Source of the DNA: an uncultured Gemmatimonadales bacterium
GTDB taxonomy: Bacteria; Gemmatimonadota; Gemmatimonadetes; Gemmatimonadales; GWC2-71-9
Assembly: GCA_963842945.1 (NCBI GenBank)
Contig: CAWJIM010000019.1
Span: 32,001-96,000 of the forward strand
Direction: 5' to 3'
DNA: 64,000 nt
The position numbers were made by a program, and so were the translations under genes. Positions 1 through 41,596 of this stretch are shown one piece after another. Under the pieces are notes generated by a model. It searched no databases. It had not been told where the DNA came from and worked only from the letters and a program-made list of their open reading frames with translations. Numbering within the stretch: position 1 is the stretch's first letter; each line of letters starts with the position of its first letter.

Positions 1-825
1 GCGAGCGTCCACCAGCACATCGTTGGTCCACAGGGTGAGCGTCCGGTAGCCAGCCTTGCGCGCGGCGTCGATGCAGGCCTGGACCAGCCTGGTGCCGAGG
101 CCGTGGCCTCGAGCCCAGGGCTCGACCAGCAACAGCCGGAGCCGCGCGACCTTCTTCGACGCAGGCACCAGAAACACGCAGCCGGCCCGCACGCCGTCGA
201 TGGTGGCGATCCAGCAGCGTTGCGCCGGATCGTGCGCCGCAGCGAATTCTCCCACGATCCGGGCCACCAGGTGCTCGAATTCGGCGTTCCAACCGTACTC
301 CTCGGCGTAGAGCTCACCGTGCCGCTGGATCACCCAGCCCAGATCCCCCGGCTCGGGTGCCCGCAAGCTCATGACCGGGGTCCTTGCTGCGTCTTTCTCG
401 TCATCGAGCAGGGTTTCGATCATGCCGAGAGATTGGAGGAGGTGCTTCTGGTCCCTCGCCGAGAGGTCCTGCAGCATGCCGGCAATCTCCTGGGTGGCCC
501 GGGCGTTTAGCACTCCGAACGCCTTCCGGCCCCGGGCGGTGAGCGCAAGCCGGCGCTCCCGCCGGTCGTGAGGCTCGGCGCGAGCGGAGACCAGCCCCCG
601 CTGCCGCAGACCGCGGAGCAGCCGGCTCAGGTACCCGGGATCGAGCTGGAGGGTTTGACCGACGGTCTTGGCCGTGGGCCGTAGCTGGTGCGCGATCTCG
701 TAGAGAACACGAACCTCGGCCAGAGAAAAGTGAGTCTGGAGGAGGCCCGGCTTCAGCAGACCCATCCTCCGAGTATAGAAACGATTGAAGCGCCGGATCC
801 GGGTGGCGGTGCTGATGCGAGACAT
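1..825 (-). CDS. Bifunctional MarR-family HTH regulator / GNAT N-acetyltransferase (3' end runs off the window)
   Basis: Manual translation from ATG at 825: MSRISTATRIRRFNRFYTRRMGLL...SLAEVRVLYEIAH...LDPGYLSRLL...DRRERRLALTARG (MarR wHTH), then PGDLGWVIQRHGELYAEEYGW...RLRLLLVEPWARGHGLG...LTLWTNDVL (GNAT). GGAGA RBS upstream. Absent from the ORF track because there is no stop in the window. Confidence 0.9.
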   Translation of the reverse strand, partial: MSRISTATRIRRFNRFYTRRMGLLKPGLLQTHFSLAEVRVLYEIAHQLRPTAKTVGQTLQLDPGYLSRLLRGLRQRGLVSARAEPHDRRERRLALTARGRKAFGVLNARATQEIAGMLQDLSARDQKHLLQSLGMIETLLDDEKDAARTPVMSLRAPEPGDLGWVIQRHGELYAEEYGWNAEFEHLVARIVGEFAAAHDPAQRCWIATIDGVRAGCVFLVPASKKVARLRLLLVEPWARGHGLGTRLVQACIDAARKAGYRTLTLWTNDVLVDAR

Positions 826-861: not shown

Positions 862-882
862 ATAGTTGCTTTTGTCAACTAT
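862..882. promoter_or_regulatory. Inverted repeat ATAGTTG-N7-CAACTAT overlapping a minus-strand TTGACA -35 box; probable MarR autoregulatory operator
   Basis: Perfect 7-bp dyad ~37 bp upstream of the MarR-GNAT start; minus strand reads ATAGTTGACAAAAGCAACTAT. Confidence 0.65.
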
Positions 883-994
883 TGCGGCGGTTCCAGGCGC
901 CCTCTTCCTACTGTTGTTTTCTTGTTTATCTCCCGGCATCTCGATCTCGGATTTAGTTCCGACTTTTGCGGCGGGAGCAGAAAGGTAGGTCGCC

Positions 995-1150
995 GGCCTA
1001 TTCGTCACTGGTGGGCTGGGCCTGGGGTTCTTCAGAATGGATGACAGCGGATCGGGCCCCCGACGTGGGAGCAGGAGTGGAGATCGGGATGGGCTATGAC
1101 ATCGGCCTGGTCCGGAATTTCAGCGTCACACCGTAGATCAACTGGTTTCA
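995..1150 (+). pseudogene. Remnant of an outer-membrane beta-barrel protein gene
   Basis: Translates as GLFVTGGLGLGFFRMDD...(frameshift)...VGAGVEIGMGYDIGLVRNFSVTP*INWFH. Alternating beta-strand pattern and GYD..RNFS.TP motif resemble OmpA-like barrels; no start codon, internal stop. Confidence 0.45.
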
Positions 1151-1225
1151 CTTTCACACTTCGGATTCGCGCGGATCCGCTCTGGGAATCGGACTCGCCC
1201 TCTCAGTGCACTAGCCGGATCAGGC

Positions 1226-1265
1226 TCACTTGGCTTTCCTGGCGCTCCTTCTTCCACAGGCCGCT
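1226..1265 (-). repeat. Degenerate third copy of the gcvT 3' end
   Basis: Minus strand TGG AAG AAG G-- AGC GCC AGG AAA GCC AAG TGA = WKK(G)SARKAK* after restoring 2 nt; compare gcv[12 protein letters not shown] and the 2619 copy WKKGSAKKGL*. Confidence 0.55.
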
Positions 1266-1357
1266 CGCGTCCGACAACAAGTCTTTGGTCGCCGCTTGAC
1301 CCTGGCTTGACCGGCGGAGGATAGAGTGGCGTCGAACCCCTGAACGAGGAGACTCGG

Positions 1358-2608
1358 ATGTTCCAGCCGTCGCGCGTTCTCACCTCAATCCTCTTGGCCG
1401 GCACTGAGATAGCTGTGGGCGGGTGCGGAGACAATACGGCCTCGCCCACATCCCCGGAGGCCGCCGGCCCAGCAGCGGCCGCGGCGGCCGCGGCCGCGCT
1501 CTCCTTTACCCGGGTAAGCGTTGGCGGCTATCACACTTGCGGCCTCGCCTCCGGCGGGGGGATCTATTGCTGGGGTAGTAACGAGTACGGTCAGCTCGGC
1601 GACGGGACTCATAGCCGCCGCACGGTTCCAACGCCGGTCTCGGGCGGGCTGGTCTTTGTCCAGGTGAGCGCAGGCACCAACCATACCTGCGGAGTAACGG
1701 CCCAGAACCGCGTCTACTGCTGGGGGAACAATGAAGGCGGGAGGCTGGGCGATGGGACCGCTCTGGAACGCAGTGTGCCCACGGCAGTCGGCGGTGGACG
1801 CCCCTTCGTGGAGGTACGCGCCGGAACCCTTCACACCTGCGCCGTCAACCAGTTCAACGTAGGCTTTTGCTGGGGCAGTTCGCGCTTCGGTGAGCTCGGC
1901 ACCGATCCAACCACTCAGCAGCCCCTGCCGGCTCGGGTTGTGGGGGGCCACGCTTTTCGGCGTGTAGTCGCCGGAGGGGGCTTCACCTGCGGGGTGACCA
2001 CGGCGGACAAAGCGTACTGCTGGGGCTACAACCTCGACGCGGAGCTAGGTGACGGTACCTACACAAACCGGTCGAAGCCGGTGCCGGTCTCGGGAGGGCT
2101 CAGCTTCAGGCAGGTTGTCGCCGGGGGGGGCGACATCTCGGACGCGCAGGGAGACGAGGTGGATCCGGGCCATGCCTGCGGAGTGACCACGGATCGCCGG
2201 GCCTATTGCTGGGGCTACAGCAGCTCCGGCCAGCTCGGCAATGGGGTCAGAGACGGCGGCGTGCGGAGCCCGGTAGCGGTCGGGGGCGGGCTGCGATGGA
2301 ACCAGGTGATCGCCGGCCTCAATCACACCTGCGGCGTCACCACGACCAACCTTGCTTACTGCTGGGGGCTGAACGGCTCTGGCGAGCTCGGAATCTCGGG
2401 TGGCCCGGGCCCCGGCGTCGCATCGCCGACCAGAGTGGCCGGCGGCCTCCTATTCAGCGGCGTGACCACCGGCCCCGGGGGAGCGCATACCTGCGGAATC
2501 ACTACCGGGAACCGGATCTACTGCTGGGGCTACAACGCCTTCGGCCAGCTGGGCGACGGGACCCTCACGAATCGCTCAACCCCGGTCAAGGTGGTGGGAC
2601 AGTCGTGA
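1358..2608 (+). CDS. RCC1/BLIP-II-like beta-propeller repeat lipoprotein
   Basis: About 7 repeats of HTCGVT...YCWG.N..GQLGDG; lipobox-like AVGGC followed by an Ala-rich linker; GGAG RBS. Confidence 0.9.
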   Translation: MFQPSRVLTSILLAGTEIAVGGCGDNTASPTSPEAAGPAAAAAAAAALSFTRVSVGGYHTCGLASGGGIYCWGSNEYGQLGDGTHSRRTVPTPVSGGLVFVQVSAGTNHTCGVTAQNRVYCWGNNEGGRLGDGTALERSVPTAVGGGRPFVEVRAGTLHTCAVNQFNVGFCWGSSRFGELGTDPTTQQPLPARVVGGHAFRRVVAGGGFTCGVTTADKAYCWGYNLDAELGDGTYTNRSKPVPVSGGLSFRQVVAGGGDISDAQGDEVDPGHACGVTTDRRAYCWGYSSSGQLGNGVRDGGVRSPVAVGGGLRWNQVIAGLNHTCGVTTTNLAYCWGLNGSGELGISGGPGPGVASPTRVAGGLLFSGVTTGPGGAHTCGITTGNRIYCWGYNAFGQLGDGTLTNRSTPVKVVGQS

Positions 2609-2618
2609 GAGCTTGAGT

Positions 2619-2680
2619 TCATAATCCTTTCTTCGCGCTTCCTTTCTTCCAGAATGGCCGGCTGACGACCTCAGCCGGCA
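2619..2680 (-). repeat. Displaced copy of the gcvT 3' end ([19 protein letters not shown])
   Basis: 2644-2680 matches 3971-4007 at 35/37 nt. Over the 14 codons [14 protein letters not shown] the four differences are all synonymous third-position changes. Has its own stop codon. Confidence 0.9.
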
Positions 2681-2761
2681 CCCTAGCTTGACTCCTGCTT
2701 GACCCAACGCGGCAATCGTCCGTACCACTGAAACAGACCGGTTTCTTCATCTGGAGTTCCC

Positions 2762-3919
2762 ATGCGAAGCTTCTGCACCAGGTCTTTAATCCTCTTGGCC
2801 GCCATGGCGGCCATCTCAGGATGCCAGCAGGACCCGATGTCCCCCTCAGACCTGGAAGCACCGGCGCTTGCCGCCAGCGCAACGCAGGCGACGTCGTTCC
2901 TGAACGTAAGCTCCAATTCATTCCGGAGTTGCGGGGTAACCCAGGACAACCGGATCTACTGCTGGGGTACGACCAGCGGGTTCGTTCCGGGCTCGCTTCG
3001 CTTCCAGCTGGTCAGCGTCGGCGGCGATCATACCTGCGGCGTCACCACCGACAAGGTGGCCTACTGCTGGGGCGCCAACTTTTTCGGCGAGCTGGGTGAC
3101 GGAACCTTGACCTCACGCTCGGCACCCACCCCGGTTTTGGGCGGCCGCAGATGGAATCTGGTGCGCGCCGGCGGTTACCACACCTGCGGGGTGACCACGG
3201 ACAACCGGGCGTTCTGCTGGGGGCGTGACAGCGAAGGGCAGGTCGGGGATGGCACCCCCGACAATTCCTGGCGGCTGCGTCCGGTACTGGTCGCCGGCGG
3301 GCTAAGCTGGCGTCAGGTCATTCCCGGGCACTTCCACACCTGCGGTGTGACCACGGGCAATAAGGGATACTGCTGGGGGGCCGGTGATGGCGGCCGGATC
3401 GGCGACGGCAAGACCGTCGAGCGACACGCGCCGGTGGCTGTCGCTGGGGGGCGGAGCTATCGCCAGGTTGCCGCCGGTGACATGCACAGCTGCGGTGTCA
3501 CCACGGACAATCGGGCCTTCTGCTGGGGATATAATGCTGAGGGGCGCCTGGGCGACGGAACCACCACCGACCGCCTGAAGCCGGTGGCGGTGGCCGGCGG
3601 ACTCCAGTTTAACCGCGTGGGCATCAACCGTGTGACCTGCGGCGTGACGACCAGCGGCAAAGGCTACTGCTGGGGCTTGAATGCCACGGGACAGTTGGGC
3701 GATGGCACCACGACGAACCGCTCCCGGCCGGCAGCGGTCTCCGGTGGGCTTCAGTTCAGAGAGATAAGCCCGGGAAACGGCGCCGACACCGCCGATCACA
3801 CCTGCGGTCTCACCACCGGCGGTAAGGTCTACTGCTGGGGCGAGAACGGTTTCGGCCAATTGGGTGACGGAACGACCGACAACAGCTCCAGACCCGTGCC
3901 GATAGACGATCCGGCGTAA
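2762..3919 (+). CDS. RCC1/BLIP-II-like beta-propeller repeat lipoprotein
   Basis: Lipobox AISGC; repeats [13 protein letters not shown]...GQLGDGT; first repeat shortened; GGAG RBS. Confidence 0.9.
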
Positions 3920-3942
3920 CCGACTGCGGGGGGCGGGGAGGG

Positions 3943-5059
3943 CTACTGCCCCGCCTTGCGAACGCTACCCTTCTTCCAGAACGGCCGGCTGACCACCTCA
4001 GCCGGCATTCTCTCGCCCCGCATCTCGACCTCGAATTTGGTGCCGACCTTGGCGGCCGCCGCGGGCAGATAGGTGGTGCCGATGGGCACCCCGAGCGAGG
4101 GACTCATTGTGCCACTCCGCACGATGTCCACTTCCCGGTCGGAGGAGTAGACCGAGTATCCGTGCCGGGGAAAGCCTCGCCCCTGGAGCTGAAAGCCGAC
4201 CAGCTTCCGGGTGACGCCTCTACGCTTCTGGGCGTTGAGCGCAGAGTCGCCGGTGAAGGGACAACCCTTGTCCAGCTTCACGATCCAGCCGAGTCCCGCC
4301 TCCAGCGGGGTGGTGGTATCGTCGATCTCATTTCCGTAGAGGGCATAGCCCATCTCCAGCCGCAATGAGTCCCGCGCTCCCAACCCGATCGGCTTGGCGC
4401 CGGCCCGAATCACAGCCTCCCAGATCTCGGGAGTCTCCCGCTCTCGGCAATACAGCTCGAAGCCGTCCTCGCCGGTGTAGCCGGTGCGGGAGATGAAACA
4501 TTCGGCGTTGGCCACCCGGCCGGAGGCGAAATGGTAGTAGCCGATGTCGCTCAATATCGTTCCGGTGAGCGGCTGCAGCAGCGACTCGGCCTGCGGGCCC
4601 TGTACCGCGAGGAGGCCGACCTCGCTGGAGATATCCTTCAGCCGCACGTTGGCGCCGCCCTTCAGGGCCACCATGTGCTCCCAGGCCCTGGCCGTGTTCG
4701 AGGCGTTCACCACGATCATCAGCTTGTCCTCGAACCGATACACCGTGCAGTCGTCCACGAAGGTGCCTTGGGGCGTGAGTATGCCCGAGTACTGAACCGC
4801 GCCCGGCTTGAGCGCGCCTACGTCATTGCAAGTGATCCGATTGACGAAGGCATTCCGGTCCGGACCGGTGATCTCGAACTCGCCCATGTGCGACACATCG
4901 AAGATGCCGGCGGTCGTGCGGACGGCGTGATGCTCGGCCAGGATTCCGCTGGGGTACTGCACCGGCATCTCCCAGCCCGCAAACGGGACGATTTTGGCGC
5001 CCAATACTTCGATGCGCCTCGAACAAAGCGGTACGTCGGAGTGTCTGGGTAGTTGTCAT
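3943..5059 (-). CDS. gcvT: Glycine cleavage system aminomethyltransferase T (one frameshift near 5005)
   Basis: [16 protein letters not shown] | [49 protein letters not shown] motifs. Confidence 0.95.
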
Positions 5060-5072
5060 GTCTTCACCAAAA

Positions 5073-5193
5073 AGCGTGAGCGGGGAGAAAACAACGTGAG
5101 CGGTGCAGCGGGACATCATGACCTGCGAGCTTTCCTGCTTGCGCTCCCCGCTTTCCCGCTTACGCTTTTCTTTTCCCGCTCACCGCTTACGCT
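5073..5193. repeat. REP/MITE-like palindromic element built from GTGAGCG / CGCTTAC units
   Basis: Begins AGCGTGAGCGG and ends CCGCTTACGCT with internal inverted copies; same termini as 34307-34418; overlaps the argF 3' end. Confidence 0.7.
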
Positions 5194-9088: not shown

Positions 9089-12022
9089 TTATCTGGGTTC
9101 GTCTACCAGCCGCGCCAGTTCCGCGCGCACCCGGTCCACCTCCGGTTTAACCGCAGTCTCAGGGTTGTAGCGCAGCGCGAGGTAATGGCTGTACGCCTTG
9201 ATCGCGCCCTCGCGGTCCCCCACGAGCGCCGCGAGGCGGCCCTGCTCCCGCAGGCCATACGCGAGGTTCAATATTGGGAAATATTTCGAGAGCAGCCGAG
9301 TTGCCCGGAGCGCACCCTGCAAGTCACCCTGGGCCTCGCGCCACCGTGCAACTTCCATGGCCCAGCCCGGCACTCCTCCACCTGCACGGAGAAGTGAGTC
9401 CAGCCGGCCAAACGCAGCTCCTGCGTCGGGCCGGTGCTCCGCGGCGGCCAGTAGCGCCTCCAACAAGAAGCCGCACCCCCAAGCATTCCCCGCCGCCAGT
9501 CGCGCGATCGCCGATCGGGCGGTCCGGGTGTTGCCATGGGCCAGTCGCCACCACTCCACGGGGCACATAGCCTCATATTGTTGCTTTCGGGCCGCCGAGT
9601 CTCGCGCCACCGGGCCATCAGCATATGGCGCGAGGCGGGCCAAGGCTTCCACGCCTGCCGTGGTGTCGACGTTCCCGTAGTACCCGTATATCGTGTGGAC
9701 GATGATGTACCCCTGCAGGAGGCGCGCAGCCCGTTCGCGGCGCATGAGTGTCGGGATGGCCTCCTTTGGACCCAACTGGGCGACCGCGGCCGTCGCTGCG
9801 GCAGGCCGACCCAACTGTTGATAGAAAACGAAAATGTCGAGGACCCCCCAGAAGCCACCCGGTCCCGGCCTCGACCGCCTCAGGTACAGCGCCGCACTGC
9901 GCTCGGCTTCCTGCATGGCGATTCCGAACAACTCTGCGTCGAGCAGCAGCTGATCAATGCCGTTGCCGGTGCTGTCGAACTCCTGCCGAGCCGCGATGAG
10001 CATCGCGCTATCGCCCAAGACCGCGCCGGCCTGTAGCCGACGCAAGGCGCTCCTGGGCTCATCCTTGGGAAGGCGGTTGATCAGCCGCCGCACCACGGCG
10101 GTGTCCCGCTCCATTTCGGCGATCTCCAGCAGGTGAATCATGGGCTCGACGTTGAGCGTCGAATCCAGCGCGAGCGCGCGGTTGAGCGCCTCCGCGGCGC
10201 GGCGGAGCGGCTCCTCGACGTCGGCCACGCCGCCGTCGTGGAAGTACGCGTCTCCCAGCTGGATCCACAGATCGGGGTCATCGGGCACCTGCCGCACCGC
10301 CTTTTCCCACGCCTGTATCCGCTCGGTGGATGACGGGGGATCAGGGTACCGGGGGCCCTCCAGCGCCTCGAGGAACACCTGCTCCCGTGGACCCAGCCGA
10401 TCACGGTAAGTCCGGGTGAGCCGCATGGCGCGCGTATCCCCCCCGCCTGTATTCTCGGTCCAACCCGCCGATTGGAGATATCCGAGCGCGGCACGGGCAA
10501 AGGTAGAGTCGAGCTCGAGCGCGCGGCCGAAGTGCCGGACGGCCGTATCGTACTGGCCGGCACGATAGGCCGCGTTGCCGGCGAGATAGGCGTACAAAGC
10601 GGAGAGCGACGTGCTCGTCAGACTCGCGAGGCGATCCGCCGGCACGCCCGCTCCCTGCGCCGCGAGCTGGGCGGCAAAGTGATCGACCAGCGAGTGGAGA
10701 CTGTCGGGCGTCCCTTCGACCTTGGCCTCGGCCCGTACCCGGCCGTCCTCGGTGTCGAGCAGCGACCCATTCAAGATCAGGCGTCCGGGCGTGGCCACGA
10801 TGGTGCCCAGCACCAGGGCGCCGGCTCCAAGCCGGCGCGCCACCTCGCGGGCGTCGTCCTGGGTAAGATCTTGACCCCGCGGTCCAACGGCTATGGTGCC
10901 ACGCGGCCAGGGCGGTCCGCGCCGGGACGACCCGGGCGCCGCCGGCGCCGGAGAACTCGACCTCCAGGAAGTCCACCATCCCTTCGCGCAGGGCGTTGGA
11001 ACTCGTGTCGGTGCCAGTGAGCCTGAAGGGAAAGACTGCCATGAGGCCGGGATCAAGTTTCGCTGATGGCGAGCGTCGGGCAAGGATCAGCGTTACGCCC
11101 AGGAGTACCGCGAGCAGTCCCGCCGCAGCAACGATCCAGCCCTGCGCTGGGGTGCATGGGCGCGTAGGCCGCGCTCACGCGCTACTGGCGCATTGGGCTG
11201 GGCAAGAGCCTCTGCAAACCGACCCACCGTTGCGAAGCGATCGGCAGGCGATTTCGACAGCGCCCGGTTGATCGCCTGCTCGACATGGAAGGGTACCGAC
11301 TCGCGCACGGTTCGGAGCGGCGGCACCGGTTCCGTCAGCCGCCGGGCCAGGATTGCCTGCGCGGTACGTCCGGTGAAGGGCGGTTCTCCGGCCAGCATCT
11401 CATACAGGACGCAACCCAGCGCGTACTGGTCGCTCCGCCCGTCCATGTTTTCGCCGGCCCCCTGCTCCGGGCTCATGTACAGTGGAGTGCCGAGGCTGAG
11501 CCCGGTCTCGGTCAGCGCCTCCGAGCTAGCCACAGTGATCGCCTTGGCGATCCCGAAATCCGCCACCACTGCGTGCCCGTTCTCCAGGAGGATGTTCCCC
11601 GGCTTGATGTCCCGGTGGATCACGCCGTAGGTGTGGGCGTAGTCCAGCGCGTCCGCCACCTCGCGCGCGATCTGCAGGGCGTCGTCGAGCGGCAGCTGCT
11701 TCTCGCGCCCCATTCGCTCGCGGAGGGACTCGCCCTCCACGAGGGGCATAACATAGAAAAGGAATTCGTCCGCCTCGCCGGAATCGAAGAGCGGGAGGAT
11801 GTGGGGGTGGCGCAGGTTGGCTGTGGTGGTGACCTCACGCAGGAAGCGATCCCGGCCCAGGGCGGCGGCGAGCTCGGGGCGGAGCACCTTGATGGCGACC
11901 TGGCGCCGGTGCTTCAGGTCCTGGGCCAGGTAGACGATCGCCATCCCACCCGAGCCGAGCTCGCGCTCGAGGTGATACCGATCGGCGAGGGCGGCCCGAA
12001 GCCGCGTGAGGATGTCGGACAG
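9089..12022 (-). CDS. Receptor-like Ser/Thr protein kinase 1 (kinase-TM-TolB-like-TPR; frameshifts ~10900-11160; start uncertain)
   Basis: RELGSGGMAIVYLA, VAIK, HRDIKPGN, DFG, GTPLYMSPEQ; then MAVFPFR...EGMVDFL and TPR-like helices ending HYLALRYNPETAVKPEVDRVRAELARLV. Confidence 0.85.
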
Positions 12023-40336: not shown

Positions 40337-41596
40337 CAGCCCTCCTTCGCCTGACTCCGCTCGAACCAGCGGGAACCCAGAGCGGCCACGTAGCCGTCGT
40401 AGTTCCGGCGCATCTCAGCCAGGGAGTCACCCCCGAACTTCTCCAGCATGGCATCGGCCAGCACCAGCGCCATCACGGCTTCGGCGATCACTCCCATCGC
40501 CGGAACCGCCGTGACATCGGACCGCTCGCTGACCGCTTTGGCCGGCTGCCCTGACTCGAGATCGACTGTGGCGAGGGGGGACATCAGGGTGGAGATCGGC
40601 TTCATTGCTACCTTAACAACAACCGGTTCCCCATTTGTGATCCCGCCCTCCAGCCCTCCGGCGTTGTTGGTCGGCCTTCGGAACCCCCCACGCGGATCCG
40701 TCCCCTCCCGGCCTCCGCCCTTCCCCGCTTTCTGCCCCGCCGCCCCGCTGCCCCGCCGCCCCGCTTCGATAGGATCGTGGACCTCGGAGCCGGGCCTACG
40801 CGCTGCCTCGAAGCCCATCCCGATCTCCACCCCTTTGACCGCAGGGATCGACATCATGATCCCGGCGAGCCGTCCGTCGAGCTTCCGGTCCCAGGCGACG
40901 TGACTGCCCAGTCCGACGACGACGCCTCGGGCGATGACTTCGACCTCGCCCCCCAAGGTGTCGCCCGCTTTCTTGGCCGCGTCGATCCGGCCGATGATCT
41001 CGGCTTCGACCGCGGAGTCGAGCACCCGTATCTCGGACCGGTCTGCCGCCTGGTTGAGAGGCACCGGCAGCTCCCCCCGGGGGACCTCGATCCCGCCCAG
41101 GGAAACAACGTGACTCCCGATTTCGATCCCGAACTCATCGAGCAGTCGCTTGGCCAAGGCCCCGGCCGCCACCCGGGCCGTCGTCTCCCGGGCGCTAGCC
41201 CGCTCCAGGATATCTCGCGCATCCAGGCGATCGTACTTGAGCACTCCGGCCAGATCGGCGTGGCCGGGGCGGGGACGGGTCACCCGGCGGCGGCGCAGCT
41301 CCCCGATCATGATCCGCGGGCTCGTGCGCCATCACGTCTTCCCAATTGGTCCAGTCGCGATTGGGGATCAGCATGGCGACCGGGGAGCCCAATGTCTCGC
41401 CGGCGCGGAGTCCGGCCAGCCACTCGATCTGGTCGCGCTCGATCTTCATTCGGGCGCCCCGGCCGTAGCCCTGCATTCTCCGCGCAAGCTCCCGGTCGAC
41501 CCACTCCGCTGACACCGGGAGTCCCGCGGGCAGACCCTCGACGATGGTGACGAGCGCCTTGCCATGCGATTCGCCTGCGGTGGTGAATCGAAGCAT
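40336..41596 (-). CDS. aroC: Chorismate synthase (frameshift ~41310)
   Basis: [61 protein letters not shown]. Confidence 0.95.

Follow-up and report, generated by a model that had tools for sequence, protein, structure and literature searches.

How does a bacterial housekeeping gene come to be followed by a series of displaced copies of its own 3' end, interspersed with genes for surface lipoproteins? The question is raised by gcvT, the gene for the glycine cleavage T protein, in a 64,000-nt stretch of DNA from an uncultured Gemmatimonadales soil bacterium (assembly GCA_963842945.1, contig CAWJIM010000019.1, positions 32,001 to 96,000). This whole stretch is referred to below as the window (G000:C19:32001-96000, where G numbers denote genomes, L numbers denote the loci compared and G000 is the genome of the window, assembled as 4.3 Mb in 24 contigs with 87% completeness and 6% contamination). 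Three displaced gcvT 3' ends (tails 2, 3 and 4) lie behind the live gcvT, whose own end is tail 1, and each is most like the live end of a different relative. The recurrent, integrase-free stacking of surface lipoprotein genes at the end of this housekeeping gene is real, and the stack was probably built by fusing alleles of one interval, with homologous recombination at one end and an illegitimate join at the opposite end. Ordinary recombination, rather than a dedicated insertion enzyme, is its most likely source. A preliminary description, made from the letters of the window alone, had recognized the array and translated its tails correctly; the array is larger than it noted, since tail 4 (879-995), a palindrome at the tail 2 boundary and three RCC1 genes to the left of the window were absent from that account.

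Displaced gcvT ends behind the live gene

The features of the array, in window coordinates, are as follows.

1..825 and beyond the window, minus strand: MarR-GNAT fusion gene (Pfam MarR_2 and Acetyltransf_1), first cargo of slot 4
879..995, minus strand: tail 4, a decayed gcvT 3' end; gcvT -131 to -66 well kept, remainder degenerate
996..1214, no strand: spacer, ~1138-1214 of which is common to L099; no gcvT similarity above the null
1226..1263, minus strand: tail 3, a displaced gcvT end of the same type as those of G054/L141, lacking 2 nt in the G000 assembly
1294..1311, plus strand: GCTTGAC-N4-GCTTGAC box 5' of RCC1a, putative promoter or regulator site
1358..2608, plus strand: RCC1a, 416-aa RCC1-repeat lipoprotein, convergent with gcvT
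2619..2680, minus strand: tail 2, an intact displaced gcvT end containing the palindrome at 2657-2679
2686..2703, plus strand: GCTTGAC-N4-GCTTGAC box 5' of RCC1b, 5 nt off the tail 2 junction, putative promoter or regulator site
2762..3919, plus strand: RCC1b, 385-aa RCC1-repeat lipoprotein, convergent with gcvT
3943..4007, minus strand: tail 1, the live gcvT 3' end, with the palindrome at 3984-4006; common to L135 along with RCC1b
3943..5004, minus strand: gcvT, the anchor gene (Pfam GCV_T and GCV_T_C)

Past MarR-GNAT, to the left of the window, lie the three further RCC1 genes, then a receiver-domain gene (REC), then moaB. The three RCC1 lipoprotein genes (RCC1e,d,c) form one operon (G000:C19:28248-31876) preceded by a third TTGAC-repeat box, and no tails separate them. 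Four slots can accordingly be listed in G000: tail 1 with RCC1b; tail 2 with RCC1a; tail 3, whose cargo has been lost; and tail 4 with MarR-GNAT and RCC1e,d,c. The spacer sequence at ~1138-1214 is presumably a residue of the former cargo of tail 3.

Tail 2 matches the live G000 gcvT end at 41 of 45 nt (E value 1e-10 in a whole-genome search), and the four differences, spread across 14 codons, are all synonymous, as had been noted before. The live gcvT end of G087 is identical to tail 2 at 62 of 62 nt, and in that genome RCC1a follows directly after it. Tail 3, a weak match to the gcvT of G000 itself, fits the live end of G054/L141 (alignment score 50, shuffled maximum 32), and the two bases that it lacks are present in related contigs of sequencing runs X1 and X2 and in L099, which puts it in frame. 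Tail 4 aligns with gcvT at 76% over 62 nt by blastn (nhmmer E 7e-6; score 67 versus a null maximum of 33), and its alignment continues into the gcvT-MarR junction of L096. Decay rises with distance from gcvT, from tail 2 through tail 3 to tail 4. The same type of gcvT end is attached in some genomes and displaced in others in three cases, namely tail 2, tail 3 and the second tail of L099, which is of the type live in G105. These correspondences support the earlier suggestion, made for tail 2, that the tails were once-functional alleles; as scraps, they encode at most the last 20-70 residues of GcvT. The N-terminus of the live gcvT apparently lies in another frame (open reading frame 4823-5119; window 5004-5060), and it is among the many apparent frameshifts of the G000 assembly that are probably sequencing errors.

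The gcvT-moaB interval in relatives

Two other families supplied 11 loci for comparison, and in every one of them gcvT, moaB and the gene of a sigma54 regulator are adjacent. Within the genus, where 81 of 103 genomes gave a strong gcvT match and 59 loci from 58 genomes were compared, the gcvT-moaB gap ranges from 0 to 10.8 kb, and 27 of the 59 loci have RCC1 genes in the stretch that runs from gcvT to the sigma54 gene or, failing that, to the end of the contig. The interval in this Gemmatimonadales genus is a core-gene-flanked cargo hotspot, with fixed flanks, variable content and no mobile element. Relatives, whose comparison the preliminary description had proposed, differ in both the number and the kind of units. 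Immediately behind gcvT, G011 and G087 have RCC1a, G050 has RCC1b, and G054, G105 and G082 have other RCC1 genes, and in L096 and L108 gcvT is joined directly to MarR-GNAT, the cargo found behind tail 4 in G000.

Displaced ends occur in three other alleles. In L135, tail 1 is followed by RCC1b and the motif, beyond which both the displaced tail and the RCC1 gene differ from those of G000; L099 carries RCC1b, a scrap of the MarR-GNAT 3' end, RCC1a, tail 3, a G105-type tail and another repeat protein; and in the single allele represented by L114 and L122 a displaced tail, again accompanied by the motif, separates two genes that encode another type of repeat protein. The slots of G000 thus occur singly elsewhere, and stacks have arisen with several cargoes. 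One locus, L182, is a second, divergent argF-gcvT locus (65-75% to G000 gcvT) followed by an RCC1 gene; it falls in the same bin as L185 and is possibly bin contamination. L187 is without gcvT.

Pattern searches extended the survey. The tail pattern was found at 18 loci in genome contigs (17 of the 18 records being Gemmatimonadales), with no new displaced tail in the 7 of these loci inspected, and it had no match in viral contigs; the motif-plus-tail pattern had none in genome contigs. Among metagenome matches, 39 of 61 were gcvT ends and the remaining 22, without gcvT similarity, were dropped. The proposal that other duplicated gene ends might be found by scanning G000 yielded little: for 3585 genes, called crudely, nearby copies of 3' ends numbered 44 on the same strand and 23 on the opposite strand, and the 14 copies inspected, most of them paralogues missed through frameshifts, included no second clear stack. 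Possible further remnants are isolated 89% copies of 3' ends at G000:C5:171801-171891 and C4:126706-126766, whose parents, an exonuclease III-like gene and a lipoprotein gene, respectively, are intact 5-9 kb downstream of the copies. Short copies of lipoprotein gene 3' ends also lie just downstream of the intact genes at G000:C16:64378-64470 and C19:400473-400514.

Cargo genes, promoter box and palindrome

RCC1a and RCC1b encode RCC1-repeat proteins with lipoprotein-type N-termini, and the closest solved relatives of RCC1b are UVR8, HERC2 and RCC1. The two are 45% identical, and in a quick tree of 50 rows, from which truncated genes (e.g., those of G011 and G050) were left out, each groups with orthologues of other genomes in a supported clade of its own. 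Because they are so divergent and are not sisters, the tree, which had been suggested as a check, supports the view that units were added rather than duplicated in place. Relatives of RCC1c are found in G082 and G118.

The preliminary description had also pointed to a GCTTGAC motif shared by both units and lying next to the tail. The motif is indeed there as GCTTGAC-N4-GCTTGAC at both sites, but it does not behave as a recombination site. With one mismatch at most, the repeat has 9 sites genome-wide, 5 of which are upstream of RCC1 genes and three of these without a tail. A looser TTGAC-N6-TTGAC pattern has 12 sites in G000, of which 7 precede genes with lipoprotein-like N-termini (judged by eye); examples ahead of diverse lipoprotein genes are C18:133990, C19:440395, C21:99966 and C23:109154. 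Sites ahead of lipoprotein genes throughout the genome, together with the three tail-free RCC1 sites, led us to reject an att site. The repeat is better read as a putative promoter box of lipoprotein genes, and the TTGAC-N6-TTGAC sites as a candidate surface-protein regulon. A direct repeat with an 11-bp period is predicted to be the site of a winged-helix regulator. Each RCC1 unit has its own TTGAC-repeat box upstream, unlike the promoterless cassettes of integrons, which are read from a single Pc promoter. The repeat also adjoins REC in several relatives, and just past the gcvT stop in L148 about 20 nt of the RCC1b 3' end are fused to the motif and REC, the cargo having been deleted. A REC-end snippet beside the L135 motif was dropped, its sequence being explained by gcvT.

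At the tail 2 boundary is a perfect 9-5-9 palindrome (9-bp arms), with tail 2 starting 1 nt outside it. Such a palindrome occurs in the last 100 nt of 24 of the 3585 called genes; it is present in 10 of 93 live gcvT ends, marks one of six remnants and was the only repeat found in a search of the joints. Its hairpins are stable (z -3.4 and -2.7), yet a terminator scan called none there, and a role as terminator was set aside. It may favour illegitimate joins or deletions.

Variable joints and scraps of the flanking genes

Counted from the stop of the best-matching live allele, the remnants start at -61 (tail 2), -41 (tail 3), -131 (tail 4), -76 (L099), about -96 (L135) and -212 (L114), and four of the six extend upstream of the palindrome. 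A fixed crossover of the kind made by integrative elements would leave one common start; the starts here range from -41 to -212. Nor are the scraps confined to gcvT. Pieces of moaB were found as a 5' head in G095, internal segments in G024 and G008 and a 3' end in G087, and a 5' head of the sigma54 gene in G090 matches that genome's own gene at 67 of 69 nt (all at E < 0.001). These scraps, from five genomes, are all oriented as their parents are, and a reversed control gave 0 hits at E < 0.001 over the 310 kb searched. Other candidates were set aside: L087 (a split moaB), L072 (a genuine gene at the end of a contig), L064 (probably a different receiver domain), L039 (only one moaB in view) and all matches with E > 0.001. 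A weak moaB 5' head-like stretch (E ~0.02) lies between moaB and the sigma54 gene in three close genomes, at positions 11854 (L031), 3957 (L051) and 5464 (L053) relative to the gcvT stop.

G000 has four matches to the tyrosine recombinase family (PF00589), namely XerD, XerC, a partial integrase beside a tRNA and an unclassified 53-codon fragment on another contig. None lies in the gcvT interval, and the nearest, the chromosomal XerC, is 31 kb away. In this genome, 87% complete, the three PF00589 matches that were scanned scored at best 145 against an integron integrase cut-off of 265, and no serine recombinase was found. The partial integrase, directly beside tRNA-like sequence at L153:1456-2200 (G000:C18), is unrelated to the gcvT locus. 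Variable starts, 5' heads and the lack of an integron integrase together defeat a site-specific reading. Of the earlier proposal of sequential cassette addition, the addition of units is supported and the integron-like or att-based mechanism is not.

How the stack may have arisen

In the reconstruction that we favour, each allele of the interval consists of a gcvT end, one or more convergent lipoprotein genes with a TTGAC-repeat promoter, a REC gene and moaB. Double homologous recombination in the flanks would usually swap single alleles. Occasionally, incoming DNA would be homologous on one side only and be joined illegitimately on the other, as in homology-facilitated illegitimate recombination (HFIR), or else a trimmed fragment would recircularise and integrate by one crossover. 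HFIR was defined in PMC3240628, which also reports anchor duplications of 109-950 bp from recircularised fragments (here and below, published systems are described from the portions of the cited texts that were available). Either route would fuse two alleles head to tail and leave 40-210 nt of a flanking gene at the joint. Longer gcvT pieces would presumably serve as a second anchor and lead to plain allele replacement, which would explain why only short scraps persist. The incoming DNA may have arrived by transformation: comEC and dprA are present in G000, and a type IV pilus cluster, named from reading translations, appears to lie within the window. One-sided homology with an illegitimate join explains variable ends, the involvement of both flanks, heads as well as tails and the absence of an integrase, and the genomes display the corresponding pattern of one homologous anchor with a variable opposite junction.

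Several points weigh against this reconstruction. Competence genes are no proof of transformation. The microhomology of 3-10 bp expected at an HFIR junction is not established by these junctions, for none of which both true parents were available; the first six nt of tail 2 come after the motif in G054 and G105 too, but in G000 six other nt intervene. HFIR is rare and usually deletes recipient DNA (PMC3240628), whereas here a short piece is duplicated. Internal deletions occur in L114 and L135, and later deletion could have shortened the remnants from one fixed start upstream of -212. Displaced gcvT ends are seen in just 4 alleles among 66 intervals of at least 200 nt, and L114/L122 was recovered through the tail pattern itself. 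Finally, tail 4, tail 3 of L099 and the L135 remnant score E 0.06-0.26 in the scrap search, in which the best reversed control reached E 0.05; support for these three comes instead from nhmmer, locus comparisons and shuffled-null alignments.

A scrap, once present, could be used as a landing pad or an excision repeat. That displaced gcvT ends are in fact reused in both ways, forming an integrase-free cassette array, we consider a tentative idea with the odds against it. We are similarly doubtful that the beta-propeller lipoprotein slots, under one TTGAC-repeat regulon, are independently swappable across soil Gemmatimonadales species. Another proposal, which we consider unlikely but which may follow on from one-sided joining and is compatible with it, is that tail repeats drive the array through RecA alone: tail 1 and tail 2 would recombine to excise a circle of tail plus RCC1b, which would insert at the gcvT of another cell, and the displaced tails would be landing pads for swapping distal slots. 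G000 and L135 do share tail 1, RCC1b and the motif and differ in the tail and cargo behind, with the joint within ~5 nt of the motif in both, and tail 2 is identical to another species' live end. Yet tails 1 and 2 share only 45 nt at 91%, which is short for RecA, and the remnants of G000 and L135 start at different points. No joint of that kind was seen among the 15 of 43 joints shown from four soil runs (contigs of related strains only), and L135 starts 9 nt before the match, its first tail not being established as live. A model of this type is laid out for rhs genes in PMC2935791.

The other alternatives fare worse. A site-specific recombinase acting in trans, inserting cassettes at the gcvT-end palindrome as an integron or integrative element would, could account for a tail 2 that begins 1 nt outside a palindrome rare among gene ends and for the gradient of decay in G000. 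It is very improbable, being largely refuted by the variable remnant starts: most remnants reach upstream of the palindrome, few live ends have one, remnants of two other genes include 5' heads, no tyrosine recombinase is near gcvT and none of those scanned passes the integron integrase cut-off, no serine recombinase was found in the incomplete genome and viral contigs hold no tail match. An assembly artefact merging the alleles of two strains might be suspected from the frameshifts, the contamination and a joint between the RCC1b promoter and tail 2 seen in G000 only. This we regard as scarcely credible: the RCC1a-motif-tail 3 joint recurs in independent contigs (X1 record 4; X2 records 18 and 19; L099), the same layout is found with other tails in L099, L135 and L114, and the joint contains no long repeat that could have collapsed. 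None of the sequencing runs searched contained more than 13% of the words, and absent RCC1b cover there is no evidence either way. Least credible of all is tandem duplication in place of the gcvT end with RCC1 followed by divergence, to which the head-to-tail layout and similar unit size might have pointed; it is refuted by cargo genes at 45% identity in separate clades beside tails at 91%, and by a tail 2 that is another species' allele and not that of G000.

Order of arrival

Core identity over 11 kb is 94% to G050, 93% to G105, 91% to G087 and 90% to G011. In 150-nt windows, identity to L099 is 93-99% across RCC1a and its spacers, as compared to 87-94% for gcvT and 73-78% for the argF-gcvT spacer, a difference which indicates that the RCC1a block was transferred laterally and not long ago. 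Relative to the core genes, the tail 2-RCC1a block also has the higher similarity to other species. RCC1b, at 72-89% to G050 and 89-96% to L135, is compatible with being an older resident. A maximum chi-square test, run on gcvT only, gave no significant 3' mosaic breakpoint in the live gene (p > 0.05 in 6 of 7 triples, the exception lying near -798). The lateral RCC1a block and the missing breakpoint favour arrival of a distal block with a donor gcvT scrap, whereas insertion at the anchor, with displacement of the old end, is favoured by the decay from tail 2 to tail 4 and by how closely the G090 head matches that genome's own gene; the distal tail of L099 seems less decayed than its proximal one. 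The earlier view that the newest unit lies next to gcvT thus retains the decay gradient in its favour, and is opposed by the RCC1a block as apparently the most recently moved. We judge the two orders about evenly balanced, and the end product is the same whichever unit arrived last.

Other features of the window

A run of Ser/Thr kinase and TPR-like genes, as named from their translations, appears to occupy window positions 9089-32658, with near-identical kinase N-termini and several frameshifts. At ~40720-40770 is a 35-45 nt repeat of intergenic type with dozens of copies per related genome.

Relationship to known systems and significance

The array has its closest parallels in rhs and type VI secretion system (T6SS) arrays, and to call it an undescribed route, as was done at first, overstated the case, the same logic having been published for both. 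Circles were proposed for rhs tips of variable length (PMC2935791) and HFIR for T6SS effector-immunity arrays, with a parallel drawn to integrons (PMC5361080). As there, the conserved gene acquires a new 3' unit and its former end is pushed downstream, the fragments vary in length, no integrase is involved and the same tip is attached in some genomes and displaced in others. Unlike in those arrays, where the displaced tip is the gene's own variable functional part, the anchor here is the housekeeping protein GcvT and its displaced end is no such domain; what is left at the joint is a non-coding scrap of 40-210 nt, and the cargo is an independent gene that converges on the anchor and has a promoter of its own, which is predicted to allow continued expression. 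HFIR and recircularised fragments (PMC3240628) share with the array one homologous and one illegitimate end, variable junctions and, in single-crossover products, partial duplication of the anchor. They were demonstrated in the laboratory in other phyla, usually as insertion with deletion, whereas their operation here is read from genomes only.

Integrase-free hotspots flanked by core genes, for which double homologous recombination has been invoked (PMC5635113), resemble the interval in that gene content between the fixed core genes turns over at a high rate and no integrase is close by, but double homologous recombination swaps alleles and neither stacks nor leaves scraps; the word "illegitimate" does not occur in the main text of that paper. 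The additive flexible genomic islands at tRNA genes (PMC4898812) and integrons are likewise cassettes in series, with partial copies of the target gene as markers. Their insertion is directed to a site and the repeat is fixed, whereas here the target is a protein gene, the repeat ends vary and scraps come from both flanking genes. A literature search on Gemmatimonad RCC1 proteins, gcvT attB islands and displaced fragments in integrase-independent arrays, with subscription papers mostly outside its reach, found nothing on this locus. The array is neither an integron nor a new site-specific system; it is a variant of a known process and reveals no new recombinase.

The growth of integrase-free hotspots, as opposed to the swapping of their contents, is poorly documented, and at this locus its intermediates are visible. 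Gene ends that are live in one species occur as displaced copies in another, so that such scars can be used to establish dates and an order for gene additions. The tip displacement familiar from toxin arrays is extended here to a housekeeping anchor and non-toxin cargo in a little-studied soil phylum, and the boxes ahead of the cargo genes point to a candidate, as yet unnamed, regulon of surface lipoproteins.

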